Assembly (NCBI GenBank): GCA_034520945.1 | Contig: JAXHNB010000009.1 | Coordinates: 32,001-96,000, forward strand | From: Trueperaceae bacterium | Lineage (GTDB): Bacteria; Deinococcota; Deinococci; Deinococcales; Trueperaceae | DNA length: 64,000 nt | Direction of reading: 5' to 3' | Part shown: in pieces, positions 8,349-35,932 of the stretch | Layout of the letters: every line of letters starts with the position of its first letter | Position numbering within the stretch: position 1 is the first letter of the stretch | The notes under the pieces: model-generated | Told to the model about the DNA's origin: nothing | Seen by the model: only the letters and a program-made list of their open reading frames with translations | Databases searched by the model: none | Made by a program: the position numbers and the translations under genes

Positions 8349-9545
<1,197 letters not shown>

Positions 9546-9546
9546 G

Positions 9547-10321
<775 letters not shown>

Positions 10322-19893: not shown

Positions 19894-21918
19894 ATGGGAG
19901 CCCGCATGCACGACGCGCACGACGAACACGGCAACGGCGGTCACGCGGAAGGCGGCCACGACAAGCACGCGGGGCACAGCCCGGCCATGTTCCGCGACCG
20001 GCTGTGGTTCAGCCTGGTGCTGAGCGTGCCGATCCTCTACCTCTCCGAGGCGTTCCAGGCATGGTTCGGCTATCAGGCGGTGGCGTTTCCCGGTGCGGCG
20101 TGGGTGAACCCCGTGCTGGCCACGGCCATCTTCGTGTACGGCGGCATGCCGTTCCTGCGGGGCGCCCGGCACGAACTGGCGGAGCGGGCGCCCGCCATGA
20201 TGACCCTGATCGCGTTGGCGATCAGCGTGGCGTACCTGTTCTCGATGGCCGTCACGTTGGGGTTCCCGGGGACGCCGTTCTTCTGGGAGCTGGCGACGCT
20301 CATCGACGTGATGCTGCTGGGGCACTGGATCGAGATGCGCAGCGTGCAGAACGCCAGCCGGGCGTTGGACGAACTGAGCGAGCTGATGCCGTCGGTGGCG
20401 CATCGGTACGTGGGTGACCAGCAGGTGGAGGACGTGCCCGTCGATCGCCTGCGCCTCGGCGATCGCATCCTGGTCCGGCCCGGCGAACAGATCCCCGCCG
20501 ACGGCGAGGTGCAGGACGGCACCAGCAGCGTGAACGAAGCCTTCCTCACCGGCGAGTCCCGGCCGGTGACGAAGGAGTCCGGCAGCGAGGTGGTCGCCGG
20601 CGCGGTCAACGGCGAAGGCGCCCTCGACGTCGAGATCACCCGCACCGGCGACGAGACCACCCTGAGCCAGGTCATGCGCCTGGTGGACGAAGCGCGCACC
20701 AGCCGCAGCCGCTTCCAGGGGTTGGCCGACCGCGCCGCGGGCTGGTTGGCCTACGTCGCCGTCGCGGTCGGCGCCATCACCTTCCTGACCTGGCTCGGTG
20801 TGCGCGGCGACGTGTCGTTCGCGGTGACGCTCGCCGTCACGGTGCTGGTGATCGCCTGCCCGCACGCCCTGGGGCTGGCCATTCCGCTGGTCACCGTGAA
20901 CGCCACCAGCGTGTCCGCGCGGAACGGCATCCTGGTCCGCAACCGCGACGCCTTCGAGCGGGCGCGCGACCTCCGCTTCGTGGCGTTCGACAAGACCGGC
21001 ACGTTGACCGAGGGCGCCTTCGCCGTCACGCACGTCGAGACCGACGACATCGGCGAGGACGAGGCGTACCGATTGGCCCTCGGCCTGGAGGCGAAGAGCG
21101 AGCATCCCCTCGCCCAGGCGGTGATGGAGGCCGGGGCGGGCCGCGACGCGGCCGCCGTCGACGATTTCACGGTGGAGTCCGGCAAGGGCGTCGAAGCCCG
21201 CGTCGAGGGTGTCACCTACCGCATGGGCCGCCCCGAATGGCCCGACGAACTGGGACTCCAGACCTCCCCGTCGCTTCGCGAGGCGTTGGAGCGCGCGGAA
21301 GGGCGCGGCGAGAGCGTGATCGCCCTCATGAACGAGCGCCGCACGCTGGCGCTGTTCGCGTTGGCGGACCAGGTCCGGCCCAGCGCCAAGCGCGCCGTGG
21401 CGCGCCTCCAAGAGCTCGGCATCGAGCCGGTCATGATCACCGGCGACGCCGAGGCGGTCGCCGCGTCCGTCGCCGCTGAGCTCGGCATCGAACGCTACTC
21501 GGCGCGCGTCCTGCCGCAGGACAAGTCGGAGAAGGTGAAGGAGCTCCAACGCACGGGCCCCACCGCGTTCGTCGGCGACGGCATCAACGACGCACCCGCC
21601 CTGCTCCAGGCAAACCTTGGCGTCGCCATCGGCGCCGGCACCAACGTCGCGATCGAAAGCGCGGACCTGGTCCTCGTCCACGACGACCCCGAGGACGTGC
21701 TGCGGGCCCTGCAGCTCAGCCGCGCCACCTACGCCAAGATGATCCAGAACCTGATCTGGGCGACCGGCTACAACGTGGTCGCGCTTCCGCTGGCCGCCGG
21801 CGTGCTCTACCCCATCGGCATCACGCTGTCCCCCGCCGTCGGCGCGCTGCTGATGAGTGCCAGCACCGTCATCGTCGCGATCAACGCGATGACCTTGCGA
21901 CGCGTGCGGTTGACGTAA
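19894..21918 (+). CDS. copB: Copper-translocating P1B-type ATPase (CopB-like, CPH motif)
   Basis: His-rich N-terminus, [35 protein letters not shown] and MSAST motifs; start may be 19907. Confidence 0.92.
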
Positions 21919-22297: not shown

Positions 22298-23551
22298 ATG
22301 AGCCGACCGCATCCGGACCCAGGAGCCCCCCGCGACGACAGGGCGCTCGACCGCGCCACACGCGAGCACTACGAACGGCTGGCCGCCGAGGCCGACCGGC
22401 ACCTCGACGAGTTGGAGGCCCGCGCGCCGCTGAACGACGTCACGTTGGAGGACGTCCTGGCGCGCCGCGGCATCTCGCGACGCGACTTCTTGAAGCTGTC
22501 GGCCGTGATGACCACCACCATGGCGCTTCCCTCCATCTTCGACCTGCGCGTGGCACGGGCGGCCGAGTTGAGCACGCGATTGCCGGTCATCTGGCAGGAG
22601 TTGCAGTCGTGCACCGGCAACAGCATGGCGCTGATCCGGAACGCCGACCCCGGCATCGATACGCTGATCCTGGACCTGTTGAGCCTGGAGTACGCCGAGG
22701 TGCTGATGGCCCCCTCGGGCCAGGCGGCCGAGGACGTGCTGGAGGCGGCGATCGAACGCAACGACGGCCAGTACATCGCCGTGTTCGAAGGCTCAGTGCC
22801 GGTGGCCGCCGACGGGTCGTTCCTGACGATCGGCCCGGCGGGCGAGACGGGCGCCGACAAGGTCGTGCACGTGGCGTCGCACGCGGCCGCCGTGATCACC
22901 GCCGGGACGTGCGCGTCCTACGGCGGCATCCCCGCGGCCAACCCCAACCCCACCGCGGCGCTCGGCGTGGGCGACTTCCTGAACACCCGTGGGGTCCGCA
23001 AGCCGGTCGTGAACCTGCCGGCCTGCCCGGTGTCCAGCACCAACGTGGTGGGCACCATCCTGGAGTACGCCATGTTCGGGCGGCTGCCCTCGCTGGACGC
23101 GTACGGGCGTCCCTTGTGGGCGTACAGCCAGCGGATCCACGACAAGTGCGAACGGCGCGGCCACTTCGACGCCGGCGAGTTCGTGGAGGGATGGAGCGAC
23201 ATCGAAGGCATGAAGCGCGGCTTGTGCCTGTTCAAGGTCGGCTGCAAGGGCCCGATGGCCTACAACAACTGCAGCGTGGTCCGCTACAACGAGGGCGCCT
23301 CCTGGCCGATCATGGCCGGCCACGGCTGCATCGGCTGCAGCGAGCCGAACTTCTGGGATTCGATGAGCCCCTTCGAGGTCCCCCTGGCGCGGCGCGTGTA
23401 CCAAGCACCGTTCGGGACCGACGCGGACGCCGACACCATCGGCCGCGTGGCCCTGGGCGCTGCCGCCGTCGGGGTCGCGGCCCACGCGGGCGTGACCGCC
23501 GCGAAGGGCGTTCGCGAGCGGCGCGAGGCATCTCGCGAGAAGGAGGAGTGA
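22298..23551 (+). CDS. hyaA: [NiFe] uptake hydrogenase small subunit (Tat-exported, C-terminal TM anchor)
   Basis: SRRDFLK Tat motif; CTGN, GTCASYGG, PACP, HDKC, CLFKVGCKGP, NNC, WP..AGHGCIGCSEP. Confidence 0.97.
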   Translation: MSRPHPDPGAPRDDRALDRATREHYERLAAEADRHLDELEARAPLNDVTLEDVLARRGISRRDFLKLSAVMTTTMALPSIFDLRVARAAELSTRLPVIWQELQSCTGNSMALIRNADPGIDTLILDLLSLEYAEVLMAPSGQAAEDVLEAAIERNDGQYIAVFEGSVPVAADGSFLTIGPAGETGADKVVHVASHAAAVITAGTCASYGGIPAANPNPTAALGVGDFLNTRGVRKPVVNLPACPVSSTNVVGTILEYAMFGRLPSLDAYGRPLWAYSQRIHDKCERRGHFDAGEFVEGWSDIEGMKRGLCLFKVGCKGPMAYNNCSVVRYNEGASWPIMAGHGCIGCSEPNFWDSMSPFEVPLARRVYQAPFGTDADADTIGRVALGAAAVGVAAHAGVTAAKGVRERREASREKEE

Positions 23552-23554
23552 GCC

Positions 23555-25246
23555 GTGGCCAGCAAGCACGTGATCGACCCCATCACCCGCATCGAGGGGC
23601 ACCTGCGCATCGAAATCGACGTCGGCGACGGCGGGCAGGTCGAGGAAGCCGCCAGCAGCAGCACCGCCTTCCGCGGGTTCGAGACGATCATGAAAGGACG
23701 CGATCCGCGCGACGTCGGCCTGTTCGCCCAGCGGATCTGCGGCGTGTGCACCTACCATCACTACGAACGCGGGGTGGAGGCGACCGAGCGGGCCTATGAC
23801 GTCCAAATTCCGCCGAACGCCCGCCTGCTGCGCAACCTCATCTGGGCGGCGCAGCTGGTGAACGACCACACCACGCACTTCTACCAACTGCACTCGATGG
23901 ACTGGTGGGACGTCATCTCCGCCTTGGACGCCGACCCGGTGCTGGCCACCGCCGTGGCGCACCAGTACCACGAAACCCCGTACAACGCCTCCGAGAGTCA
24001 CTACCGGCAGGTGCTGGCGCGCCTGAGCGCGTTCGCGCAGAGCGGGCAGTTGGGGCCGTTCGCGGGCGGCTACTGGGGGCACCCGAAGTACGCCCTGACG
24101 CCCGAGGAGAACCTGGTCCTGGCCTCGCACTACCTGGACAACCTCGCCGTGCAGCGGGCCAGCGCCAAAGCCAGCGCCATCTTCGGCGGCAAGAACCCGC
24201 ACCCGCAGAGCCTGATCGTGGGCGGCGTGACCTCGGTGCGTGACGCGTTGGACGCGCACCGGCTGGCCGAGTACCAGTTCCTGATGAAGCAGGCCATGGA
24301 CTTCGTGAACCGCGCCTACCTGCCGGACATGGAACTGTTGGCCGACCGCTACCGCGACGAGGCGTTGGCAGGGCACGGCGGCGGCCTGCGCAACTACATG
24401 AGCTTCGGCGCCCTGTCGCTGGACGAGCAGCCGTGGGACCGCCGAGCGTTCTTCCTGCCCGCCGGGTTGGTGCTGGACCGAAACCTGGACGAGGTGCAGT
24501 CGGTCGACCCGATGCGGATCGGCGAGGAGGTCGCGCACGCCTGGTACGACTACGAGGGCGACGAGGCGTCGCTCCACCCGCTCCAGGGACAGACGAACCC
24601 CGCCTACGAGGGCCTGAACGACGATGGCACCCTCAAGACCGAGGGCGGCTACAGCTGGGTCAAGTCGCCCCGCTACGACGGCACGCCGGTCGAGGTCGGC
24701 CCGCTGGCCCGCCTGATCATCGCCTACGCCAGCGGCCACGAAGGCGTCCGTCAGAGCATGGACGACTTCACCTCGCGCCTGGGCGTGCCGTTCGAGTTCT
24801 GGTACTCGACCGTCGGCCGCACCGTCGCCCGCGGGCTCGAGACGAAGTTGGTCGGCGACCGGCTGCCCGGCCTGATCGAGGAGCTGACCGGCAACGTCGG
24901 CGGCGGGGACGACCGCTTCTTCGCGCGCTACGACGCGCAGGACGGCGAGGGCTGGGCGATGGGCGAGGCGCCGCGCGGCAGCCTGAGCCACTGGTTGACC
25001 GTCCGCGACGGCGCGGTCGACAACTACCAGGCGATCGTGCCCTCCACCTGGAACGCCAGCCCCAAGGACGGACGTGAGCAACGCGGCGCCTATGAGGCGG
25101 CGCTGGTGGGCCAGCCGATGGCCGACCCGACCCGGCCGCTGGAGGTGGTGCGGACCGTCCACTCGTTCGATCCCTGCCTGGCCTGCGCCGTGCACATCCT
25201 GAACCGCGACGGCCAGGAGATCGCCCACCACGAAGTGGAGGTGTGA
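23555..25246 (+). CDS. hyaB: [NiFe] uptake hydrogenase large subunit (group 1, 1b-like motifs)
   Basis: DPITRIEGH; L1 QRICGVCTYHH; L2 SFDPCLACAVH plus cleavable C-terminal extension. Confidence 0.98.
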   Translation: MASKHVIDPITRIEGHLRIEIDVGDGGQVEEAASSSTAFRGFETIMKGRDPRDVGLFAQRICGVCTYHHYERGVEATERAYDVQIPPNARLLRNLIWAAQLVNDHTTHFYQLHSMDWWDVISALDADPVLATAVAHQYHETPYNASESHYRQVLARLSAFAQSGQLGPFAGGYWGHPKYALTPEENLVLASHYLDNLAVQRASAKASAIFGGKNPHPQSLIVGGVTSVRDALDAHRLAEYQFLMKQAMDFVNRAYLPDMELLADRYRDEALAGHGGGLRNYMSFGALSLDEQPWDRRAFFLPAGLVLDRNLDEVQSVDPMRIGEEVAHAWYDYEGDEASLHPLQGQTNPAYEGLNDDGTLKTEGGYSWVKSPRYDGTPVEVGPLARLIIAYASGHEGVRQSMDDFTSRLGVPFEFWYSTVGRTVARGLETKLVGDRLPGLIEELTGNVGGGDDRFFARYDAQDGEGWAMGEAPRGSLSHWLTVRDGAVDNYQAIVPSTWNASPKDGREQRGAYEAALVGQPMADPTRPLEVVRTVHSFDPCLACAVHILNRDGQEIAHHEVEV

Positions 25247-26115
25247 TCGTGGCGAGCCGTGCCCGCCGCACCCGGCCGGAAGCCGTGGTCGTGCAGCGGC
25301 CGGGGCGACCGAGGATGGTGATGTACGTCTTCGGGCGCTTCATCCGGGCCGCGCACTGGATCCGCAACGGCCTGTTGATCTGGCTGGTGATCAGCGGTTT
25401 CTACCTGGCGAATCCGTTCCTGGCGCGGAACCCCGTCACCGACACCAGCAGCAACTTCGTCCTGGCGCAGGTCCGTGGCCTGCACGTGATGGCGGGGTGG
25501 CTGCTGCTGGCGTTCACGCTGGTGCGCATCTACCAGTTCCTGTTCATCCGCCGGGACGGGCGCCTGGGCCTCGGCGCCGAGCTGCGCATGGCGCCGATCC
25601 TGCTGAACTGGAAGGCGTGGCGCGACCAGCTGGCGTTCTATCTGCTGCTCCGGCGCGACCATCCGCACTTCACCTACAGCAACTACGGGCCGCTGCAGTA
25701 CCTGGTGTACACGCTGCTGTACGCGGCGCTGCTGGTGATCAGCGTCACCGGCATCCTGTTGGCCGCGCCGTACGTGCAGGGCGGGCTGGCCAGCTTCGGC
25801 GCCGGCCTGCTGCGGCCGATCGAAGTCGCACTGGGCGGCCTGGCCAACGTGCGAGCCCTGCATCACTTCACGATGTGGTTCTTCATCGTGTTCACGCTGA
25901 TTCACATCTACATGGCGGTGTGGAACAGTTTGCGCACGGGCAACATGCTGATCGAAGGCATCATCTCGGGCTTCAAGGCGGTGGACACCGAGGTCGAGCG
26001 GGCCACGGAGGCCGACGTGGCCCCGGACGCGGCCGATGACACGACGAACGCGACATCGAAGGACACCAAGGCGCAAGGGAAGGCGCAAGGCAAGGCGAAG
26101 GGCTCGAAGCGGTGA
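25243..26115 (+). CDS. hyaC: Hydrogenase cytochrome b subunit
   Basis: RAAHW, RGLHVMAGW, GPLQ, RALHHFTMWFF..HIYM heme-ligand histidines; 4 TM. Confidence 0.93.
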   Translation: MIVASRARRTRPEAVVVQRPGRPRMVMYVFGRFIRAAHWIRNGLLIWLVISGFYLANPFLARNPVTDTSSNFVLAQVRGLHVMAGWLLLAFTLVRIYQFLFIRRDGRLGLGAELRMAPILLNWKAWRDQLAFYLLLRRDHPHFTYSNYGPLQYLVYTLLYAALLVISVTGILLAAPYVQGGLASFGAGLLRPIEVALGGLANVRALHHFTMWFFIVFTLIHIYMAVWNSLRTGNMLIEGIISGFKAVDTEVERATEADVAPDAADDTTNATSKDTKAQGKAQGKAKGSKR

Positions 26116-26669
26116 GCGGCGCACGCCCCCTCCTGGTCCTCGGCGTCGGCAACCTGTACTACGGCGACGAAGGGGCGGGCGTGCACCTGGTGCACCATCT
26201 GCGCCGCAAGTACGCCTTCCCCGAAGGCGTCGACGTCGTCGACGGCGGGACGCTGGGCTGGGACCTGCTGGGCATGATCGCCGAACACCACCACGTCATC
26301 CTGCTCGACGCCGTCGCGGCCCCGCCCGGCAAGATCTACCGCTTCGGCCGCGACGACGTGCCCGACGAGATCGGCTACGGCAAGCTCTCCTCGCACGAGT
26401 GGGAGGTGCCGGACCTGCTGAGCGCCATGGCGCTGTTGGGCGATCTGCCGGACGTGACCATCATCGCCATCGGCGTCGCGCCGCTGGAGTTCGAAACGGG
26501 ACGGGTCGGGGTCGCACTGAGCGCCCCCATTTTGGCCCGGATGGGGGCATGGGCCGAGGTGGTGCTCCGCGAATTGGCGCGCCACGGGGTCGCGCCGATC
26601 ACGGTCCGACCCGAGCTTCGCGCCGAACGTCCCCTCACCGCCGAGGAGATCGTGTTGCATCATGCATGA
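26112..26669 (+). CDS. hyaD: Hydrogenase maturation protease
   Basis: LVLGVGNLYYGDEGAG, VDGGTLG, LLDAV, SSHE. Confidence 0.95.
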   Translation: MSGARPLLVLGVGNLYYGDEGAGVHLVHHLRRKYAFPEGVDVVDGGTLGWDLLGMIAEHHHVILLDAVAAPPGKIYRFGRDDVPDEIGYGKLSSHEWEVPDLLSAMALLGDLPDVTIIAIGVAPLEFETGRVGVALSAPILARMGAWAEVVLRELARHGVAPITVRPELRAERPLTAEEIVLHHA

Positions 26670-27009
26670 GTTCGGGCTGGCCGTGAGCATGCTGGATCTC
26701 GCCGAACGCAGCGCGCGGGCGGACGGCGCGCAGCGCATCGACGTGATCCACGTCGAGATCGGCGCCTTGGCCGCCGTGGTGCCCGAAGCGCTCACGTTCG
26801 CGTTCGAGGGGGCACGCCTGGGCACCATGGCGGAGGGGGCACGCCTGGAGGTCACCTACCTCCCCGCCATCGCGTTTTGCGCGTCGTGCCAGCGCGAATT
26901 CGAGGCGTACGATGGCTTCGGCGTCGCGCTGTGCCCCGACTGCGACACGCCGTCGGCGGATCTGCGCCAGGGGCGCGAGCTGCGCCTGAGCCACTTGGAG
27001 GTGGCCTGA
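26662..27009 (+). CDS. hypA: Hydrogenase nickel chaperone HypA
   Basis: MHE start, CASC...CPDC, GREL. Confidence 0.96.
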   Translation: MHEFGLAVSMLDLAERSARADGAQRIDVIHVEIGALAAVVPEALTFAFEGARLGTMAEGARLEVTYLPAIAFCASCQREFEAYDGFGVALCPDCDTPSADLRQGRELRLSHLEVA

Positions 27010-27728
27010 TGGCCGACACCCCGAACGTCCGCGACGTCCACCTCAGCGCTCACGGCACCGGCGTGGCGCCCGACCCCCGGGTCGTGCAGGTCCAGAAGTC
27101 GCTGATGACGCACAACGACACCGTGGCGCGCGCCAACCGTGAGGCCTTCGCCGGCAGCCTGGTGCTGAACGTCGTCTCCTCGCCCGGCTCGGGCAAGACG
27201 GCCCTGCTGGAGGGCACCGTGCGCGCCTTGGCCGGCCAGCTGTCGGTGGCGGTCATCGTCGGCGACCTGGAGACCGACAACGACGCCACGCGCCTGCATG
27301 CGGCCGGGGCGCCCTCGGTGCAGATCGCGACGGGGGCGGTGTGCCACCTCGAGGCCGAGATGGTGGCGCGGGCCGCCGAGCGGCTCGACCTGGACGGCCT
27401 GGACGTGCTGGTGGTCGAGAACGTCGGCAACCTCGTCTGTCCCGCCGCCTGGGACCTCGGCGAGGACCTGCGGGTGGTGCTCCTGGCCGTCACGGAGGGC
27501 GAGGACAAGCCCCTGAAGTACCCGCGGATCTTCAAGGATGCGCACGCGGTGGTGATCAACAAGATCGACATCGCGGACGCCGTCGGCTTCGACCGCGACC
27601 TGGCGCTGGACGCCGTCCACCGCGTCACCCCCGCCGCGCAGGTGTTCGAGCTCTCGGCCCGCACGGGCGAGGGCATGAACGCCTGGCTGGACTTCCTGCG
27701 AGAGCGCCGCAGCAGCAAGCGGGGCTGA
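27009..27728 (+). CDS. hypB: Hydrogenase nickel-incorporation GTPase HypB
   Basis: SSPGSGKT, CHLEA, ENVGNLVCPA, EGEDKPLKYP; ATG overlaps the hypA stop. Confidence 0.96.
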   Translation: MADTPNVRDVHLSAHGTGVAPDPRVVQVQKSLMTHNDTVARANREAFAGSLVLNVVSSPGSGKTALLEGTVRALAGQLSVAVIVGDLETDNDATRLHAAGAPSVQIATGAVCHLEAEMVARAAERLDLDGLDVLVVENVGNLVCPAAWDLGEDLRVVLLAVTEGEDKPLKYPRIFKDAHAVVINKIDIADAVGFDRDLALDAVHRVTPAAQVFELSARTGEGMNAWLDFLRERRSSKRG

Positions 27729-27730
27729 GC

Positions 27731-30061
27731 GTGCCGGCCGAGCGGCTGCGCCTCCGCGTCACCGGCACGGTGCAGGGCGTCGGCTTCCGCCCGTTCGTGT
27801 ACCGGCTGGCCCGCGAGGCGCAACTGCGGGGCTGGGTCCGCAACGACGCGCGCGGCGTCACCATCGAAGTGAGCGGGGACGTTCAGGCGACGGCGCGCTT
27901 CGCGGACGCCCTCGCCAGCGATGCGCCGCCCGCCGCCCGCGTGGACGCCGTGACGGTCCTGGAGCGCGGGCCGCACACCGACGACGCACCCCCCGGCTTC
28001 GTGATCGTGCCCAGCGAGGACGCAGACGACGTCACCACCGACGTCTCGCCCGACCTGCCCGTGTGCGACGCCTGCCTGCGCGACATGCGCGACCCCACCG
28101 ACCGCCGCTACCGCTACCCGTTCGTGAACTGCACCGATTGCGGCCCGCGCTACTCGATCGTGGAGGCGCTGCCCTACGACCGTCCCCTCACCACCATGCG
28201 CGGCTTCACGATGTGCAACGACTGCGCGCGGGAGTACCACGACCCGAACGACCGGCGCTTTCACGCCCAACCGGTCGCCTGCCCCCGCTGCGGCCCGCGG
28301 CTGCGATTCGTGGCCTCGCCGAATCCGGACGCGTCTCACGCGGGAGACACGGCGCCCCCGGAAGAGGCGGCGCCGGCCGCCTGGGACGAGGCGGCGCTGG
28401 AGGCGACGGTGCGCGCCCTGCGCGAGGGGCGGATCGTGGCGGTCAAGGGCCTAGGCGGGTACCACCTGGCGTGCGATGCGCACGACGAGGCGGCGCTGCG
28501 GGCGCTCCGGGAACGCAAGTTCCGCAAGGAGAAGCCGTTCGCGGTGATGGCGCGCGACCTGGCGGCGCTGGACGGCGTGGTGGTCCTGAATGATGCCGAG
28601 CGGGCGCTGCTGGCGTCCACGGCGCGGCCGATCGTGCTGGCGCGCAAGGGAGAGGTGCCGCTGCCGGACGGGCTGGCGCCCGACAACGCCTCGCTGGGCG
28701 TGATGCTGCCCTACACGCCGGTGCACCACCTGCTGTTCGACGGCGGCGCGCCCGCGTTGCTGGTGATGACCAGCGCGAACCGTTCCTCCGAACCGATCGC
28801 CTACCGCGACGACGAGGCGCTGGCGCGCTTGGCCGGCCTGGCGGACGCCTTCCTGATCGGCCAGCGGCCGATCGCGCGGCGCGTCGACGACAGCGTGGCG
28901 CAGGTCGCGGCCGGCCAGGCGTCGGTGCTGCGGCGCGCGCGGGGGTACGCCCCCGCCCCGGTGGTGCGCGATACGCGCTTCGAGCGGCCGTCGTTGGCGC
29001 TGGGCGCCGAGTTGAAGAACGCCGTGACGCTGGCGGTGGGCGGCGCCGCCTACGTCAGCCAGCACCTCGGCGACCTGGGCGACCTGGCGTCGTTCGAGGC
29101 GTTCCAGGAGACGGTGCACGACCTGTGCGCCATGTACCGCGTCGACCCGCGCACGGTGCCGGTGGCGCACGACCTGCACCCGGCCTACCCCAGCACCCGC
29201 TTCGCGATGGAGCTGGGCGGCCCCCGCGTAGGCGTGCAGCACCACGAGGCCCACATCGCCAGCGTGCTGGCGGAGCGTGGCGCCTGGGAGGTGCCGGTGC
29301 TGGGGTTCGCGTTCGACGGTGCGGGCCTGGGTCACGACGGCACGGTCTGGGGCGGCGAGGTGTTCCACGGCAGCCTCGACGCCGGCCTGACGCGCGTGGC
29401 GCACCTGCGGCCCGCCCGCCTGCCGGGGGGCGACGCCGCGGCGCGCACGCCCGTGCAGGCCGCGGTCGGCTGGCTGGAGGCGCTGGGGGACGAGGCGCTG
29501 GAGCGGGTGACGGCCCCGCCGTTCGACTTCCCTGCAGCGCGGGTCAATGTCTCGCGGCAGTTGATCCAACGAGACACGCAAGCGCCGGTGACCACCAGCG
29601 TCGGCCGGTTGTTCGACACCGTCGCTGCGCTGACCGGCTTCGCGGGCTCAATGAGCTTCGAGGGGCAGGCGGCGATCTGGTTGGAGGCCGCCGCCTGGCG
29701 CTGTGCGGAGGCGCCGCCCTACCCCTGGCCGTTCGACGGGCGGCAGTGGGACCACGTCCCCTTGCTGCAGGCGGTGATGGACGACGTCGCGAACGGAACG
29801 GAGCGGGCGCGGGTGGCGCGCCGCTTCCACGAAAGCCTGGCGCAGGGCATCCTCGACGCGGTGATGACATTGCGTGGCCGACACGAGGTCGCCCACGTGG
29901 TGCTCTCCGGCGGGGTGTTCCAGAACCGCCTGCTGCTGGAGCGGACGGCGGCGCGGCTGGCGCGTCAGGACATCAGCCTCTGGTGGAACCGCGCGGTTCC
30001 GGCCAACGATGGGGGCATCTCGCTCGGTCAGTCCGCACTGGCCGCCATGTCAGGAGGGTGA
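27731..30061 (+). CDS. hypF: Carbamoyltransferase HypF
   Basis: GTVQGVGFRPFVY acylphosphatase domain, two Zn fingers, KGLGGYHL, QHHEAH, NDGGISLGQ. Confidence 0.97.
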   Translation: MPAERLRLRVTGTVQGVGFRPFVYRLAREAQLRGWVRNDARGVTIEVSGDVQATARFADALASDAPPAARVDAVTVLERGPHTDDAPPGFVIVPSEDADDVTTDVSPDLPVCDACLRDMRDPTDRRYRYPFVNCTDCGPRYSIVEALPYDRPLTTMRGFTMCNDCAREYHDPNDRRFHAQPVACPRCGPRLRFVASPNPDASHAGDTAPPEEAAPAAWDEAALEATVRALREGRIVAVKGLGGYHLACDAHDEAALRALRERKFRKEKPFAVMARDLAALDGVVVLNDAERALLASTARPIVLARKGEVPLPDGLAPDNASLGVMLPYTPVHHLLFDGGAPALLVMTSANRSSEPIAYRDDEALARLAGLADAFLIGQRPIARRVDDSVAQVAAGQASVLRRARGYAPAPVVRDTRFERPSLALGAELKNAVTLAVGGAAYVSQHLGDLGDLASFEAFQETVHDLCAMYRVDPRTVPVAHDLHPAYPSTRFAMELGGPRVGVQHHEAHIASVLAERGAWEVPVLGFAFDGAGLGHDGTVWGGEVFHGSLDAGLTRVAHLRPARLPGGDAAARTPVQAAVGWLEALGDEALERVTAPPFDFPAARVNVSRQLIQRDTQAPVTTSVGRLFDTVAALTGFAGSMSFEGQAAIWLEAAAWRCAEAPPYPWPFDGRQWDHVPLLQAVMDDVANGTERARVARRFHESLAQGILDAVMTLRGRHEVAHVVLSGGVFQNRLLLERTAARLARQDISLWWNRAVPANDGGISLGQSALAAMSGG

Positions 30062-30063
30062 CC

Positions 30064-30294
30064 ATGTGTCTGGGAATTCCACACGAAGTCGTCGAGGTGC
30101 TGGACGGTGATCGCTGCTTGATTCGCGTCGGCGACGGGGCACGTCACTGCTTCATCGGCCTGATCGAAGACTTGCAGGCGGGTGACTGGGTCGTGGTGCA
30201 CGCCGGCTTCGCCATCGACAAGATCGCGCCCGAGGACGCCAAGGCGAACCTGCGCCTGATCCAGCGCTACCTGGAGCCCGAGACCCGTGCTTGA
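30064..30294 (+). CDS. hypC: Hydrogenase chaperone HypC
   Basis: MCLGIP...GDWVVVHAGFAI; GGAGG RBS. Confidence 0.95.
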   Translation: MCLGIPHEVVEVLDGDRCLIRVGDGARHCFIGLIEDLQAGDWVVVHAGFAIDKIAPEDAKANLRLIQRYLEPETRA

Positions 30295-31465
30295 GAACGC
30301 GGCAGGGTCGTACCGCCCCGAGACGTACAAGGACCCGGCGCTGGTCGCCGGCCTTCGCACGCGCATCGCCACGCTGGCCGAGCAGATCGGCCGGCCGGTC
30401 AAGCTGATGCACATCTGCGGCACGCACGAGCACGAGATCGGACGCTACGCCCTGCGCGACCTGCTGCCGGACAGCGTGACGGTGCTGGCCGGCCCCGGCT
30501 GTCCGGTGTGCGTGTGCGACACCGAGTACATCGACACCGCGATCGCGCTGTCGCTCACGCCGGGCGTGATCCTGGCCTCCTTCGGCGACATGCTGGCGGT
30601 CCCCGGCAGCATTCCGCTGCAGGGCGAGCGCCGCGGCGACGTGCGCATGAGCCTGCTGGACGCGCGCGCCCAGGGCGGCGACGTGCGGGCCGTGTACAGC
30701 GTGTTCGACGCCGCGCGGCTGGCGGAGCGCACCCCGGACGCGGAGGTGGTGTTCTTCTCGGTCGGGTTCGAGACCACCGTAGTGGCGGTGGCGGCGATGC
30801 TGGCGCGCGGCGCGCCCGACAACCTCTCCATCATCGAAGCGAACTACTACACCCCGCCGGCGACGCGCATCCTGCCCGACCTGGACGGATTCGACGTCGA
30901 CGGGTTCATCCTGCCGGGCCACGCCGCGACGATCACCGGCCTGCGCGTGTACGAGCCGCTGGCCGAGCGCGGCATCGCCTGCGCCTGCGGCGGGTTCGAG
31001 CCGGTCGACGTGATGGCGGCCGTCGCGTCGCTGCTGGAGCAGATCCGTGACGGCGCGCCCACCGTCGCCAACCCGTATCAGCGGCTGGTGAAGTACGACG
31101 GCAACGAACGCGCCCAGCGGGAGCTGGACGAGGTGTTCGCGCTGGTGCCGATCCGCTGGCGCGGCATCGCGGAGATCCCCGCCTCGGGGTACGCGCTTCG
31201 CCCGCCGTACCAGCGTCACAGCGCCGCCCATCGCTTCGCCGGCACGCTGGCGGCGCGTTCCACGGAGGGCACCGAGCATCCCGCCGGCTGCCGCTGCGCC
31301 GAGGTGACGCTGGGCCAGATCCGACCCGATCAGTGCCGCGTGTTCGGCGTGCGCTGCACCCCCGACAGCCCGTACGGGCCGTGCATGGTCAGCCACGAGG
31401 GCACCTGCCGCGCCTGGTACGTGTACGGCATGCACAAGGAGAGGCTCCATGTCGAACCCGCCTGA
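30287..31465 (+). CDS. hypD: Hydrogenase formation protein HypD
   Basis: CGTHEH, GPGCPVC, GFETT, PGH, CMVSHEGTC. Confidence 0.97.
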   Translation: MLENAAGSYRPETYKDPALVAGLRTRIATLAEQIGRPVKLMHICGTHEHEIGRYALRDLLPDSVTVLAGPGCPVCVCDTEYIDTAIALSLTPGVILASFGDMLAVPGSIPLQGERRGDVRMSLLDARAQGGDVRAVYSVFDAARLAERTPDAEVVFFSVGFETTVVAVAAMLARGAPDNLSIIEANYYTPPATRILPDLDGFDVDGFILPGHAATITGLRVYEPLAERGIACACGGFEPVDVMAAVASLLEQIRDGAPTVANPYQRLVKYDGNERAQRELDEVFALVPIRWRGIAEIPASGYALRPPYQRHSAAHRFAGTLAARSTEGTEHPAGCRCAEVTLGQIRPDQCRVFGVRCTPDSPYGPCMVSHEGTCRAWYVYGMHKERLHVEPA

Positions 31466-32510
31466 CACCACGGCCACCGCGCCACGCCCCGCCTCGGTGT
31501 CTCGCTACGACACGGTGCGCCTCAGCCACGGCTCGGGCGGGCAGGCCACGCTGGAACTGATCGAGCAGCTGTTCGTCGCCACCTTCGCGAACGGTCCGCT
31601 GCGCGAACTGACCGACGCCGCCATCCTGGACAACCTCGGCGGGCGCCTGGCGTTCGCGACCGACTCTCACACCGTCAAACCCGCCGTCTTCCCGGGCGGC
31701 GACATCGGCCGCTTGGCGGTGGCCGGCACCATCAACGACCTGGCCGTGATGGGCGCGAGGCCCGCCTACCTGAGCGCCGCCTTCCTGCTGGAGGAGGGCT
31801 ACGACATGCGGGAGTTGGAGCGGGTGGTGCAGTCGATGAAGGCCACCGCGGACGAGGCGGGCGTGACCATCGTGGCCGGCGACACCAAGGTGTTGGGCCG
31901 CGGGCACGGCGACGGGATCTTCGTCAACACCACCGGCATCGGCTTCCTGCCGGACGACGTGCACCTGGGTGCCGATATGGTTCGACCCGGCGACAAGGTG
32001 CTGGTGAACGGCACGCTGGGCGATCACGGCATCGCGGTGATGTCGCGCCGCGAAGGATTGGACCTGGCGGTCGACCTGGTCTCCGACGTCGCCCCCTTGA
32101 ACGGACTGATCGACGCCGTGCGAACGGTCGCGCCGGGCGTGCGCTTCATGCGGGACGTGACGCGCGGTGGCCTGGCCGCCGTCGCGAACGAGGTGGTGAT
32201 GCACCGGCCGTTCGGGCTGCGGGTGTTCGACGTGGCCGTCCCCATCGACCCGCTGGTGGAGCAGTACAGCGAGATGCTGGGCATCGACCCGCTGCTGGCC
32301 GCCAACGAGGGCAAGGTGATGATGATCGTTCCCCCCGCGGAGGCGGAGGCCGCCCTGGGTGCGATGAAGGCCCACCCCTACGGGCGCGAGGCCGCCATCA
32401 TCGGCGACATCGTCAAGAGGCCCGAGGGCGTGGCGTTGGTGGAGACCGCCTACGGCAGCCACCGCGTGCTGGAGATGCCCATCGAAGAACAACTGCCGCG
32501 GATCTGCTGA
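31449..32510 (+). CDS. hypE: Carbamoyl dehydratase HypE
   Basis: HGSGG, TDSHTVKP..FPGGDIG, C-terminal LPRIC. Confidence 0.97.
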   Translation: MSNPPDTTATAPRPASVSRYDTVRLSHGSGGQATLELIEQLFVATFANGPLRELTDAAILDNLGGRLAFATDSHTVKPAVFPGGDIGRLAVAGTINDLAVMGARPAYLSAAFLLEEGYDMRELERVVQSMKATADEAGVTIVAGDTKVLGRGHGDGIFVNTTGIGFLPDDVHLGADMVRPGDKVLVNGTLGDHGIAVMSRREGLDLAVDLVSDVAPLNGLIDAVRTVAPGVRFMRDVTRGGLAAVANEVVMHRPFGLRVFDVAVPIDPLVEQYSEMLGIDPLLAANEGKVMMIVPPAEAEAALGAMKAHPYGREAAIIGDIVKRPEGVALVETAYGSHRVLEMPIEEQLPRIC

Positions 32511-33073
32511 TGTTCGCTACCCAGCGCGCCTTCATCGAGGCCGCCATCGCCGAGGTCCGCGAGGCGAAGGGGCTGCTCCTTCCGCTGCTGACGATCCAAA
32601 ACCCGCACGCCCCTTGGACCGCGGAGGCGCTGCGGGACCTCGACGATCACGTGGACGCGGACGCGGACGATCCGGTGCTACGCCGCGCGGTGACGCTGGT
32701 GGAGGCGTTCGAGCTGCCCTTCCTGGCCGAAGAGGCGCGCCTGGCCGAGCGGGGCCTCACCCTGGACACGGACATGGCCGGCTTCGAGGCCGCCATGGTC
32801 GACTTCGAACGCGCCTTCTGGGACCAGGCCTACGCGGCGTACCGGGCCGACCCCGGCCACTGGGACCTCCGCCCCGTGCCCAGCTACGACGTGTGCGAGA
32901 CCCACCGCCTGGACAGCGCCGACGTGCGCCGCGCCATCCGCGACCACGGCGCCACCTCGTTCGACGATCTGGCCCCCTACCTGGGCACGGACCGGGCGTG
33001 CAGCACCTGCCACACCGCGGTGAGCCGCCTGCTGATCCAGGCGCTGCGCCGGGCGAAGGGCGCGCCCGGCTGA
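32510..33073 (+). CDS. Uncharacterised protein with C-terminal BFD-like (2Fe-2S) domain, coupled to hypE
   Basis: TGATG overlap with hypE; VCETH...VRRAIRDHGATSFDDL...CSTCH. Confidence 0.75.
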   Translation: MFATQRAFIEAAIAEVREAKGLLLPLLTIQNPHAPWTAEALRDLDDHVDADADDPVLRRAVTLVEAFELPFLAEEARLAERGLTLDTDMAGFEAAMVDFERAFWDQAYAAYRADPGHWDLRPVPSYDVCETHRLDSADVRRAIRDHGATSFDDLAPYLGTDRACSTCHTAVSRLLIQALRRAKGAPG

Positions 33074-33081
33074 GCCACGGC

Positions 33082-34023
33082 TCAACCGGCCGGCGCGGCG
33101 CCCAGCACCTCCGTGGGGGTGTCGCTGCCGCCGTCGGGCTCCCGCGACACGGCCACGGCGTCGAACGTGTCCGCCTCGACCACGAGGGTACGGCCTTCGA
33201 GCACGCCGAGCGAGGTGACCGCGTCGCCGCGCACGCCCCAGGCTTGGAAGTCGCGCCCTTCCCCCGGGCTGGCGTGCATCACGACCAGGGCGCGCCCCTC
33301 CGGCGCAAACAAGACGCTGCCCTGCGCGAACGGCTCGCCTTCGCCCTCGGGCGGCAGCCTGCGCACGGTGACATCATTGCGGGCCAACCAGCGCGCCAAC
33401 CGCGCCTGGTCGTCCACGAGATCGTCGGCGCGCGCACGTATCGTGCCGACCTCGGTCTCGAGCAGCTCGACACGGGCGCGCGCGTCCCTCAGCTCGGCCC
33501 GCACCTCGAGCATCTCCTGGCGTTGCCACAGGCCCCAGCCCCCGACAGCGACGACCAGCACCAGGCCGGCGGCGAAGCCGGACGCCCACGGCCTTGAGCC
33601 GCGTTCACGCCAGCGCGCACCCCCGCCTTTCCTCGCCCGCCGAGCCGCTTCGGGGGCGCGTGCGGCACGGCCGAACGGCTGCGCCTCTTCGGCGGGCGCC
33701 CCTCGCAGCTCGTCGTCCGGTCGGGTCGAGGGCCCAAGCGGCGCGCTTTCGGGCGCGGTCGCCGCAGCGTCCGTCGTCGGCGCCGTAGCGTGGCCCCATA
33801 CACGCGACTCGATCCCGGCCCACGCGTCCTCGGAGGGGGGCGGACCCGGCAGACCCTCCACCGACGCGACGAACGCGTGCTCCAACCGGTCGCGCTCCTC
33901 CCGGCAGGCGCGACACGACCGCAGGTGCGCCTCGACGGCCTCCGCCTCCTCGCGGGACGACTCGCCGAGCAGATAGCCGGGCAGCTGATCCAGGGGGTGC
34001 GATTCGCGGGGCGTTTCGTTCAC
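33082..34023 (-). CDS. Anti-sigma factor (zinc-binding HxxxCxxC, TM, RskA-like C-terminus)
   Basis: HLRSCRAC; TM; DFQAWGV..SLGV..AVAVSREPDGGS..PT; GTG overlaps the sigma stop. Confidence 0.88.
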   Translation of the reverse strand: MNETPRESHPLDQLPGYLLGESSREEAEAVEAHLRSCRACREERDRLEHAFVASVEGLPGPPPSEDAWAGIESRVWGHATAPTTDAAATAPESAPLGPSTRPDDELRGAPAEEAQPFGRAARAPEAARRARKGGGARWRERGSRPWASGFAAGLVLVVAVGGWGLWQRQEMLEVRAELRDARARVELLETEVGTIRARADDLVDDQARLARWLARNDVTVRRLPPEGEGEPFAQGSVLFAPEGRALVVMHASPGEGRDFQAWGVRGDAVTSLGVLEGRTLVVEADTFDAVAVSREPDGGSDTPTEVLGAAPAG

Positions 34024-34598
34024 GTCGATCCCTCGCCCGCATCGGGGCCACGCCCTGTGAGCACGTCGCGCGCCTTGAGCATGGCGCGGCGGATGCGGCT
34101 CTTGATCGTGCCGACCGGCGCGCCCTCCCGGTCCGCGATCTCGGTGTAGCTGTACCCGCCGAAGAAGGCGTCGCTCAGCAGGCGGGCTTCGTCGCGCGAG
34201 AGTCCTTCGAACGCCTGCTGGACGGTGAGGCGGTCGGTGGGCGCCGCCCCATGGGGCCCGGCGCGCAAGGGGGATCCGGAATCGTGCGGATCGTGCCCGT
34301 CGGCCTTCGCCGGTCGGGAGCCACGTGCCCGAAGGCGCATGCGGCACGCGTTGCGCGCGATGGTGTACACCCACGCCCGCGCCGAGCCCCGCGCCGGGTC
34401 GAACCGGCCGGCGGCGTCATGCACCTTGACGAACACGTCCTGCACCACTTCCTCTGCGTCCTCTCTGCTGCCCATCATGCGCAGCGCGAGGGCATGGACG
34501 TTCCGCCCCAGCGCGTCGTACAGCGCCCGGAGGGCCTCGTCGTCGCCGCGCTGTAGTCGCTGAATGAGCTCGGCTTCGGCGTCCACGCCTTCTATCAA
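34020..34598 (-). CDS. ECF sigma factor (SigK-like)
   Basis: DAEEVVQDVF, FDPARGSARAWVYTIARN, GYSYTEIA..GAPVGTIKSRIRRA. Confidence 0.95.
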   Translation of the reverse strand: MIEGVDAEAELIQRLQRGDDEALRALYDALGRNVHALALRMMGSREDAEEVVQDVFVKVHDAAGRFDPARGSARAWVYTIARNACRMRLRARGSRPAKADGHDPHDSGSPLRAGPHGAAPTDRLTVQQAFEGLSRDEARLLSDAFFGGYSYTEIADREGAPVGTIKSRIRRAMLKARDVLTGRGPDAGEGST

Positions 34599-34603
34599 AG
34601 CAT

Positions 34604-34678
34604 ATGCGCCCTCGCCCGGACCGGATGCCCACCCCGGCGTGGCGGCACGCCATGCATCCGATCGCCGATCACGCGCAT
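34604..34678. promoter_or_regulatory. Back-to-back putative ECF promoters GCATCCG-N12-GCGCAT
   Basis: Plus copy at 34654-34678, minus copy at 34628-34604; both elements and the spacer length are identical. Confidence 0.65.
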
Positions 34679-34792
34679 TGCATGGAAGTGAAGGCCCCGC
34701 TGGGGACCTTCGACAGGCACCCGGCCACGAGGAGCGCTCACGCGCTCACCCCACGTCCGTCCCTCGCCCTGCGAGGAGGAAAGGAGCACACG

Positions 34793-35932
34793 ATGCAGAC
34801 GATCATCATCCGCACCCTGACCCTGTTGCTGGCCGCCGTGCCGGCCTTGGCATTCGCCCAGGAGGTGAGGTTGGAGGCGCAGGATCAGGAGATCCGCGGC
34901 ACCACGCTCACCCTGGATCACGTCACGTTGGCCCAGGACGGCTTCGTGGTCGTGCACGCCACCGACGCGTCGGGTGACCTGGTGCTGACGCCCCCCTTGG
35001 GCCTGACCTACCTCGAAGCGGGTGCGCACGACGACGTCGAGGTCGCGCTCCACGCAGGCGAGCTCGCGAAGTACAGCTACGAGCAGGGCGGCACAGTCGT
35101 CCCGATGCTCCACGTGGACGCGAACGGCGACGGCGCCTACCAGTTCCCGGACGGCGGTGACGTCCCCGTCACCCGCGACGAGGGGGCCGTGGTCGTGAGC
35201 ATCGACCTGACCGTGCTGCCGTCGCTGACCACCCTCGATCAGACCCTCGCCGGGCAACGCGTCACCATCGACACCGTCGTCGCCGCTCAGGACGGCTTCG
35301 TGGTGGTCCACGCGCTCGACCGGGAGGGCGACGCGGTCCTCACGCCCCCGCTCGGCGTGGCGCAGGTCGAGGCAGGCGTCACGCGCTTCCTCGCCGTCGA
35401 GCTCGACGACGCGCTCCTCGATGAATACGGCTACAGAGGCGGCCCCAAGGCGATCGTGCCGATGCTGCACGTCGACGACGGCGACGGGGCGTACGAGTTC
35501 CCGGACGGTCCCGACGTGCCCGTGACGGCGGACGGCGCGCCGCTCGTGTCGCCGTTGACGCTGTCCATGCCGGCCATGGGCCAGGCGTCGGTCGCGACGG
35601 GGCAGGGGAAGCTTTCCGTGGGCATGGACGGCCTGTCCGTCACCCTCCCCAGCGTGACGTTGACCCAACCGGGCTTCGTCGTCCTGCACGCCCAGAACGA
35701 GGACGGCAGCCTGCGCGGCCTGCCCGTGCTGGGGGCGAGCGACGCGCTGCCGGCCGGCACCTCGAACGACGTGACCATCGAAATCGCTCGTGATCAGGCG
35801 CCCATGGTGGGCGACACCGCCTACGCCATGGTCCACGTCGACGACGGGGACGGCGTCTACCGCTTCCCGGCCAGCGACCCGCCCTTCGAGCAGAACGGCG
35901 AGGTGCTGGTGGTGCCGTTCACCCTGAACTGA
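34793..35932 (+). CDS. Secreted protein of three tandem ~115-aa repeats (DUF7282-like)
   Basis: AAAGGAG RBS, signal peptide ending AFA; each repeat carries GFVV[V/L]H and M[L/V]HVD(x)xGDG.Y.FP. Confidence 0.85.
   Translation: MQTIIIRTLTLLLAAVPALAFAQEVRLEAQDQEIRGTTLTLDHVTLAQDGFVVVHATDASGDLVLTPPLGLTYLEAGAHDDVEVALHAGELAKYSYEQGGTVVPMLHVDANGDGAYQFPDGGDVPVTRDEGAVVVSIDLTVLPSLTTLDQTLAGQRVTIDTVVAAQDGFVVVHALDREGDAVLTPPLGVAQVEAGVTRFLAVELDDALLDEYGYRGGPKAIVPMLHVDDGDGAYEFPDGPDVPVTADGAPLVSPLTLSMPAMGQASVATGQGKLSVGMDGLSVTLPSVTLTQPGFVVLHAQNEDGSLRGLPVLGASDALPAGTSNDVTIEIARDQAPMVGDTAYAMVHVDDGDGVYRFPASDPPFEQNGEVLVVPFTLN

Follow-up and report, generated by a model that had tools for sequence, protein, structure and literature searches.

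Gene X (P0001; 32510-33073, plus strand) is the last gene of a [NiFe]-hydrogenase operon in a stretch of 64,000 nucleotides from a Trueperaceae bacterium (assembly GCA_034520945.1, contig JAXHNB010000009.1, positions 32,001 to 96,000), hereafter called the window, whose own numbering is used throughout. Its product is a previously undescribed protein in which one domain of no known family is joined to another whose fold is known but whose ligand set is altered; the protein stands outside Bfd proper, NifU, HucE/HhyE and all known hydrogenase accessory families. Across the Deinococcota, X goes nearly one-to-one with a single lineage of hydrogenase, and we consider it highly probable that its role is that of a hydrogenase-specific accessory protein. 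What it does in that role is argued with less assurance: the reading that we favour, tentatively, is that of a cytoplasmic, lineage-specific maturation factor, which would dock on a hydrogenase subunit with its N-terminal domain and act on it through a Cys3His cluster held by its C-terminal domain, before the enzyme is exported by the twin-arginine translocation (Tat) pathway. The features of the gene and its product are as follows.

32510-33073, plus strand: gene X (P0001), encoding a two-domain protein of 187 residues (open reading frame and translation)
32508-32512, plus strand: TGATG overlap of the hypE stop and the X start, read from the sequence
32510-32875, plus strand: N-terminal acidic five-helix domain, residues 1-122 (AlphaFold2 model)
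32891-33037, plus strand: BFD-like domain, residues 128-176 (PF04324 and Bfd fold match)
32894-32896, plus strand: codon of Cys129, putative ligand 1 (Bfd Cys4), invariant in 39/39 sequences
32903-32905, plus strand: codon of His132, putative ligand 2, one residue past the Bfd Cys6 position, invariant in 39/39
32999-33001, plus strand: codon of Cys164, putative ligand 3 (Bfd Cys38), invariant in 39/39
33008-33010, plus strand: codon of Cys167, putative ligand 4 (Bfd Cys41), invariant in 39/39

X is a real gene. Homologues align with it from residue 1 on, its G+C content at third codon positions (0.94) equals that of hypE, hypD and the large-subunit gene (0.93-0.95), and the two long open reading frames that overlap it in other frames are the usual by-product of a 70% G+C composition. 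Its ATG (32510-32512) and the TGA of hypE (32508-32510) share one base, at ATCTGCTGATGTTC, an overlap that, as judged from the sequence, couples the two genes translationally. On the plus strand the genes for the small subunit, large subunit and cytochrome b are followed by hupD, hypA, hypB, hypF, hypC, hypD and hypE and then by X, which closes the operon because the next gene (33082-34374) is convergent; a promoter and terminator scan made no calls near X. The preliminary description of this DNA, which had made X the final gene of the operon, coupled to hypE through TGATG, is thus confirmed by the sequence and by the Pfam-based gene order. X is present in a single copy in the source genome (3.47 Mb in 10 contigs, 97.4% complete, 5.1% contamination).

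The association with hydrogenase genes extends well beyond the window. We compared 22 genome loci, all from Trueperaceae or from further metagenome-assembled genomes, and eight metagenome loci recovered by a scan seeded with a distant clade of X. In 22/22 genome loci, the first hyp gene reached upstream on the strand of X is hypE, which directly adjoins X in 21. At the eight metagenome loci, whose X proteins belong to a clade 27-31% identical to ours, X always directly follows hypC (with an ATGA overlap in L027), and a structural operon 62-64% identical to that of the window lies nearby. The preliminary description had reckoned with homologues that might mostly turn out unlinked to hydrogenases; instead, X sits within hyp genes at all 22 and all eight loci. 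Two divergent Trueperaceae loci hold additional genes beside X: in L022 an open reading frame for a 245-residue 2x[4Fe-4S] ferredoxin (9241-9978) lies between hypE and X, and in L023 a second HupD-type protease gene (10628-11344) lies just downstream of X.

Three gene orders occur: hypC-hypD-hypE-X in Trueperaceae, hypC-hypD-hypE-X-DUF302 in G214, and hypF-hypC-X-DUF302 in a Meiothermus-like genus. In the Meiothermus-like clade the nearby hypD and hypE products are only 38-43% identical to those of the window, compared with 72-86% in the Trueperaceae loci, and in L064 no hypD or hypE match was found in the remaining downstream part of the locus. Because X stays beside hypC where hypD and hypE diverge or go unfound, it travels with the enzyme-specific genes (hypC, hupD) and not with the shareable hypDE pair.

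Furthermore, X and the hydrogenase small subunit were both sought in 364 Deinococcota genomes, a small subunit being counted as orthologous at E<1e-100. X was found in 33 genomes, the orthologous small subunit also in 33, and the two together in 32; the genomes divide as follows.

Orthologous small subunit: 33 genomes, 32 with X
Small-subunit fragment only (G294): 1 genome, none with X
Distant small-subunit types only (including the unpublished G325): 7 genomes, 1 with X (G192)
No small-subunit match: 323 genomes, none with X

Each of the two discordant genomes has features of its own. G268 holds the orthologous small subunit without X, which is not visible there because the contig ends within hypE. 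G192 holds X without the orthologous small subunit, and has lost the genes of both the small and the large subunit; its locus (L062:7378-10844) consists of guanylate kinase, a cytochrome b truncated to 138 residues, hupD, hypA, hypC, X and DUF302. This copy of X has lost the invariant P70 and has its BFD segment out of frame, with one 334-residue frame running through a Pro/Arg/Gly-rich stretch into DUF302, and it looks like a gene decaying after the loss of its enzyme. By conserved placement in hyp operons and by co-occurrence with the enzyme, X falls into the operational class of hydrogenase accessory genes. Taken together, the loci and the survey support the earlier proposal of an undescribed hydrogenase-linked accessory gene, and the co-occurrence with CxxN small subunits, which that proposal had named as its check, is near one-to-one among the 364 genomes.

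X is a small family. A word-indexed protein search returned 72 homologue clusters at 48-96% identity, of which the named ones come from Trueperaceae, and a HMMER profile scan of 1.84 billion representatives gave 25 proteins at E<=1e-3; distant members (27-37% identical) retain the Cys/His motif. Several architectures involve a further domain, DUF302. In the distant clade, the gene after X encodes a 136-residue protein that passes the Pfam model DUF302 (31.8 bits against a cut-off of 23), and such a gene directly follows X in 10/10 non-Trueperaceae loci that have downstream DNA. It is missing from all 23 Trueperaceae loci (L001-L023, L001 being that of the window), and one protein query found no match for it in the source genome. 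The same domain is fused to the C-terminus of X in P0084 (313 residues) and, in five Bacillota proteins (P0091, P0092, P0096, P0099 and P0100), is joined straight to the N-terminal domain with no BFD domain in between. P0091, P0099 and P0100 come from metagenome-assembled genomes of Bacillota or Clostridia. P0096, annotated as conserved and without known function, is from Ca. Hydrogenisulfobacillus filiaventi and may be the unknown protein whose gene, in the portion of the published account available to us, follows hypC and lies among hypC, a 4Fe-4S ferredoxin gene and hypA (PMC10080006). A literature search, with subscription journals outside its coverage, found no description of a BFD-like or DUF302 hydrogenase accessory protein. 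The DUF302 genes of three loci, and the genes downstream in one of them, are given here.

L027:10543-10953: DUF302 gene
L064:10585-10992: DUF302 gene
L065:178-543, minus strand: DUF302 gene
L027:11100-14037, downstream of X-DUF302: two extra HypC-family genes (101 and 94 residues), divergent hypD and hypE, and a glutaredoxin gene

The C-terminal domain is the part of X that can be placed. Pfam PF04324 (BFD-like [2Fe-2S]) scores 29 bits over residues 128-176, above its cut-off of 26 (E 1.4e-6; 30.9 bits in the whole-genome scan), and the AlphaFold2 model of X, built with 32 homologues, has a mean predicted local distance difference test score (pLDDT) of 91.9 and a predicted template modelling score (pTM) of 0.74. 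In this model, residues 126-183 superpose on Pseudomonas aeruginosa Bfd (4e6k_G) over 56/57 residues with a root-mean-square deviation of 1.9 A (Z 7.3, VIA-align), and Foldseek matches Bfd 6e6r with a template modelling (TM) score by target of 0.78 and a probability of 0.97; the BFD-like C-terminal domains of GlpD and archaeal proline dehydrogenase follow. The BFD pattern that had been recognised by eye in the C-terminal part of X is therefore real at the level of both profile score and modelled fold. The best NCBIfam match is NifU (TIGR02000, residues 128-180), at 21.5 bits against a cut-off of 273.3. Sequence comparison of X with the chains of the PDB brought up no match (best E 0.63). Transcription activator-like (TAL) effectors headed the family-profile search of the PDB (E 1.4e-11) and were rejected as a repeat-sum artefact, because each repeat contributes about 1-5 bits on a short 'LC-x-x-H-x-L' stretch.

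In the alignment of the family profile with P. aeruginosa Bfd, C129 corresponds to Cys4, T131 to Cys6, H132 to Gln7, C164 to Cys38 and C167 to Cys41, which bears out the earlier observation that the second Cys of the CxC pair is a Thr followed by a His. X does not carry the four-Cys signature of the PF04324 domain (C-x-C ... C-x2-C); its own spacing is C-x2-H-x31-C-x2-C. The invariance of C129, H132, C164 and C167 in 39/39 sequences holds down to 28% identity, and the motif C-x2-H-x(25-40)-C-x2-C is present in 85/100 collected family proteins, namely all full-length members that bear the BFD domain; the remaining 15 comprise nine fragments or frameshifted calls, five proteins of the BFD-less architecture and one unrelated NirB-like protein. 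At the position equivalent to Bfd Cys6, none of the 85 has Cys (0/85); the residues seen there are Q, E, N, T, V, A, H, D, L, K, I and R. Directly after the CxxC pair, where X has H168, 66 members have H, nine K, nine R and one Y. Since H132 is invariant and H168 is not, the conserved ligand set consists of three Cys and His132. The set of three Cys plus His put forward in the preliminary description thus stands as far as H132 is concerned, whereas the Thr at 131 varies and the His after CxxC is not conserved. We think it fairly likely that the BFD-fold domain carries an iron-sulfur cluster on this Cys3His site, and the fold of the model together with the residue positions suggests that it is probably a [2Fe-2S] cluster.

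On the other hand, the N-terminal domain resembles nothing that we could find. It is predicted as five helices (5-30, 38-50, 55-67, 69-80 and 89-113) and, modelled on its own, reaches a pLDDT of 94.4 and a pTM of 0.85. Residues 1-125 are acidic, with 24 D/E against 11 K/R, and the invariant residues of the domain are F8, E10, P25, P35, L44, P70, E75, E100 and W104; there is no obvious metal site, because neither Cys nor His is among them. Pfam, NCBIfam and the sequences of the PDB hold nothing above threshold for this domain, and neither Foldseek (no match at E<=1e-3) nor VIA-align brought up anything that passed; the ESM Atlas gave no usable feature match for X, and its structure rows reached at most TM 0.51 in unrelated families. 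In VIA-align, the best Z for the domain was 5.2 with the whole model of X and 5.0 with the domain alone against 48,161 chains, both under the noise level stated for helical models; the latter match is the insert of Hef (1wp9; root-mean-square deviation 3.9 A over 87 residues). Two candidate relationships were rejected, that to Pfam TetR_C_28 at 15.3 bits against a cut-off of 26.4, and that to HybE at an hhalign probability of 0.13% against the Escherichia coli protein. HybE (PF11939), HyaE (PF07449), HupH_C (PF04809) and rubredoxin (PF00301) are likewise absent from the Pfam matches of X at E<=10 and from the listings of the N-domain fold searches, whose matches were all below noise. Sequence, profile and fold searches therefore agree with the earlier view that the acidic domain matches nothing known, and Foldseek, proposed there for each domain, finds Bfd for one part of X and nothing for the other.

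The enzyme with which X occurs is a Tat-exported, cytochrome-b-linked group 1 [NiFe]-hydrogenase with an unusual small subunit. Where solved small subunits have the proximal-cluster motif ECTGCSES, the subunit of the window has QSCTGNSM (compared with PDB 8pou_S and 1h2a_S), so that Asn108 occupies a position held by the second Cys (ECTGCS) in all solved group 1 small subunits. The pattern C[TSA]GN[ST] is found in every orthologous small subunit with a readable site; in L052 it matched nothing. Among 120 listed relatives of residues 20-160, 78 carry C[TSA]GNS, 41 carry CTGCS and one has neither. The 41 are the next relatives and are Campylobacter-like, the Asn-type listed relatives include Meiothermus cerbereus, and Asn-type clusters are about as many as X clusters. 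A second peculiarity is an N-terminal extension of about 40 residues ahead of the twin arginines (HYExLAAEADxxLDxL), which was present in all 32 sequences examined (26 of them in the alignment) and places the twin-arginine motif at about residue 61, as against about 37-40 in Campylobacter-type relatives; it is a possible chaperone docking site. The best solved match of the large subunit is Allochromatium vinosum 3myr_B. Given this match and the Campylobacter-type nearest canonical small subunits, we abandoned group 1f, our initial assumption for the HydDB class, and leave the subgroup unassigned. The genes of the operon and the first neighbour beyond X are listed below.

22298-23551, plus strand: Tat-signal small subunit (Pfam; PDB sequence matches)
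22298-22462, plus strand: N-terminal extension, small-subunit residues 1-55, ahead of the twin-arginine motif
22610-22621: S-C-T-G-N-S motif, small-subunit residues 105-108 (alignment)
22619-22621, plus strand: codon of small-subunit Asn108, replacing the second Cys of the proximal-cluster CxxC
23555-25246, plus strand: large subunit (Pfam; PDB sequence matches)
25243-26115, plus strand: cytochrome b (Pfam)
26112-26669, plus strand: hupD protease (Pfam HycI)
26662-27009, plus strand: hypA (Pfam HypA)
about 27009-27728, start not fixed, plus strand: hypB (Pfam cobW on the open reading frame 26877-27728)
about 27730-30061, start not fixed, plus strand: hypF (Pfam HypF domains)
30064-30294, plus strand: hypC (Pfam HupF_HypC)
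30287-31465, plus strand: hypD (Pfam HypD)
31449-32510, plus strand: hypE (Pfam AIRS and AIRS_C), product ending in PRIC, directly upstream of X
33082-34374, convergent with X: anti-sigma factor gene, with an extracytoplasmic function (ECF) sigma factor gene next

The sigma/anti-sigma pair that converges on X is adjoined by a gene for a 442-residue protein with three DUF7282 repeats (34604-35932). Close upstream of the operon lie a formate-tetrahydrofolate ligase gene (17940-19559) and a gene for a P-type ATPase with a His-rich N-terminus (19894-21918), for which a link to the supply of CO ligand or metal is conceivable.

Tat-exported group 1 enzymes are commonly served by dedicated helpers. 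HoxR/HupI, HoxO/HyaE, HoxQ/HyaF/HupH and HybE are small cytoplasmic, enzyme-specific proteins that act on a Tat-dependent small subunit and are encoded in hydrogenase operons of aerobes. The source genome yielded no match to rubredoxin, HybE, HyaE or HupH_C, all of which were matched in control genomes, so that the niche of the rubredoxin and the small-subunit chaperones appears to be empty there. X has no sequence or profile relation to any of these proteins, none of which its fold searches listed, and its putative metal site is a different one. We also predicted a complex of X (39 alignment rows) with the small-subunit precursor (26-row alignment), using unpaired alignments and a score that carries no contacts. 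The median score was 0.51 (runs of 0.51, 0.01 and 0.56) against 0.00 for the best of three controls, with contact agreement of at least 51% and a partner pLDDT of at least 79, which the procedure grades as 'weak support'. The mark for support is reached by 116/157 solved complexes and by 2/215 mismatched pairs; it is reached at 0.60 or less by 18/157 solved complexes and by both of the mismatches that pass.

The favoured reading builds on these observations as follows. X has no signal peptide and the enzyme has a Tat signal, therefore X acts in the cytoplasm before export. This marks it as a factor of maturation or escort; it is not the electron acceptor of the enzyme, a role that belongs to the cytochrome b. 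Restriction to one enzyme lineage, enzyme-specific neighbours and decay along with the structural genes fit a protein that works on one of the structural subunits. The two marks that distinguish this lineage, the Asn in the proximal motif and the extended signal peptide, are both on the small subunit, which we regard as a possible, if far from secure, client of X. In the mechanism that we propose, the acidic five-helix domain would dock on the unexported hydrogenase precursor, most likely that of the small subunit, and the Bfd-fold domain would hold a [2Fe-2S] cluster on Cys129, His132, Cys164 and Cys167. This Cys3His cluster could give electrons, a labile cluster or iron with which the Fe-S clusters of the subunit are assembled or protected, in an aerobe, ahead of Tat export. 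X would then be a one-protein stand-in for the rubredoxin (HoxR/HupI) and the small-subunit chaperones of oxygen-tolerant hydrogenases, with a part that may be likened to that of the NifU central domain in cluster assembly. What the analysis shows is the gene, its fold, the conserved residues, the linkage and the co-occurrence, whereas we infer the type of cluster, the client, and a role in redox chemistry or as a donor. In its fullest form, X, together with the DUF302 protein outside Trueperaceae, would represent a new class of [NiFe]-hydrogenase maturation factor: by way of a novel docking domain, a Bfd fold with a Cys3His [2Fe-2S] cluster would reach the small-subunit precursor and there build or guard an Asn-ligated proximal cluster, so that this lineage would have evolved a helper of its own where oxygen-tolerant enzymes use a rubredoxin and chaperones; stated with all these parts, the idea is doubtful. 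An Asn-ligated proximal cluster would itself be a variant not previously characterised.

Several observations weigh against this interpretation. The co-occurrence comes from a single phylum and from related genomes that are not independent, and it may largely reflect the inheritance of one operon as a block. X adjoins hypE or hypC and not the small-subunit gene. The score of the predicted complex falls in a band that is mostly wrong unless the pairing is likely a priori, and one of the three runs gave 0.01. A small helical domain with a Cys3His site could bind Zn or Ni in place of a cluster, and the BFD domain of a clade-2 homologue scores 23.7 bits, under the PF04324 cut-off of 26. Lastly, the Bacillota relatives have the N-terminal domain without the BFD domain, so the redox module is dispensable for whatever job the N-terminal domain does.

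An alternative follows directly from the position of the gene: X could be an electron donor to HypC-HypD-HypE, feeding the [4Fe-4S]/disulfide cascade of HypD during CN/CO attachment. It lies directly after hypE (21/22 loci) or hypC (8/8), with stop/start overlaps, a small ferredoxin-like domain would suit electron donation, and the additional ferredoxin gene of L022 sits at the same place. However, HypCDE chemistry is universal, while X is restricted to one lineage (25 proteins among 1.84 billion representatives), keeps with hypC in the Meiothermus-like clade, where hypD and hypE are divergent or unfound, and is missing from genomes with other [NiFe]-hydrogenase types. We therefore regard this explanation as unlikely.

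X could also be mainly a Tat chaperone that proofreads or escorts the precursor of the small subunit with its unusually long signal peptide, in which case the Cys3His site would be structural or would time release by sensing redox state or iron. A Tat-exported group 1 enzyme usually comes with a member of the HybE, HyaE or HupH family, and none was found in the source genome; moreover, the small subunit bears the conserved extension ahead of the twin arginines, the acidic helical domain stands without BFD in Bacillota, and the full precursor gave the weak complex pass. This proposal, which we rate as quite improbable, has to contend with the lack of sequence or profile likeness between X and HybE or any chaperone family, and with the invariance of all four ligands, which suggests that the metal site is central and not an add-on. 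Furthermore, the complex prediction consists of scores without contacts and so gives no pointer to the signal peptide as the contact site.

Little credence attaches to a third possibility, that Cys-x2-His...Cys-x2-Cys binds a single Ni, Zn or Fe and that X is a metallochaperone or storage protein. Cys3His is indeed common as a mononuclear site, the N-terminal domain is strongly acidic and X has not retained the four Cys that bind the cluster in canonical BFD domains, but the operon already holds a nickel system in HypA and HypB, the Bfd fold is retained with 3/4 ligands at Bfd positions, and X has no His-rich or Cys-rich stretches for metal storage. Finally, that X is Bfd proper, docking on bacterioferritin and releasing stored iron for hydrogenase synthesis, is very improbable: the fold match is to Bfd from its complex with BfrB (4e6k_G) and the automatic name given by the Joint Genome Institute (JGI) is 'bacterioferritin-associated ferredoxin', but the source genome, 97.4% complete, yielded no bacterioferritin, the sole ferritin-superfamily (PF00210) gene found in it being a Dps (NF006975, 199.7 bits, cut-off 114), X has an extra domain of 125 residues and lacks the four-Cys site, and its occurrence tracks hydrogenase. 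The only other BFD domain in the genome belongs to an open reading frame for a 578-residue protein resembling glycerol-3-phosphate oxidase that depends on flavin adenine dinucleotide.

Comparison with known systems helps to delimit what a maturation factor of the favoured kind would be. With P. aeruginosa Bfd (4e6k, 6e6q), X shares the helix-turn-helix fold of residues 126-183 and 3/4 ligand positions; it differs in the invariant His after a Cys6 position that is never Cys, in the additional N-terminal domain of 122 residues, and in its tie to hydrogenase instead of iron storage. The central [2Fe-2S] domain of NifU (TIGR02000) is likewise a BFD-like domain, built in that case into a protein of metallocluster assembly, and it offers a functional analogy as a redox domain that serves Fe-S assembly; the IscU-like and Nfu-like domains of NifU are missing from X, and the four-Cys site belongs to NifU. 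The same proposed Cys3His [2Fe-2S] ligand set is seen in mitoNEET/CDGSH proteins and IscR, whose folds are unrelated to that of X, and there the cluster is labile, sensitive to pH and redox state, and transferable.

HucE and HhyE of the mycobacterial Huc and Hhy hydrogenases also call for comparison. In the portion of the source available to us, they are operon-encoded putative Fe-S proteins with Cys/His motifs that are needed for H2 oxidation and are proposed as electron acceptors; they combine a NifU-like domain with Rieske-type CxH...CxxC or two CxxC motifs, and their genes lie in the structural operons of cytosolic group 2a/1h enzymes that have no cytochrome b (PMC6883350). As far as that portion describes them, domain content, motif and spacing rule out that X is one of these proteins, and X further differs in its BFD fold, its location among hyp genes and its association with a Tat-exported enzyme that has a cytochrome b.

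Of all parts of [NiFe]-hydrogenase biosynthesis, small-subunit maturation is understood least, and lineage-specific helpers such as HoxR, HoxO/Q and HybE are the main handles on it. X joins these as a candidate helper that is compact, models well, is linked strictly to its enzyme and has an unusual Cys3His site within a Bfd fold. Should X prove dispensable, it would be merely a clade-restricted passenger of the operon. If the link is functional, however, X and the Asn-type small subunit would form a testable pair of factor and cluster variant for studying how non-canonical Fe-S clusters are installed in aerobes, and the context described here provides the first functional setting for a helical domain of unknown kind and for a DUF302 protein.

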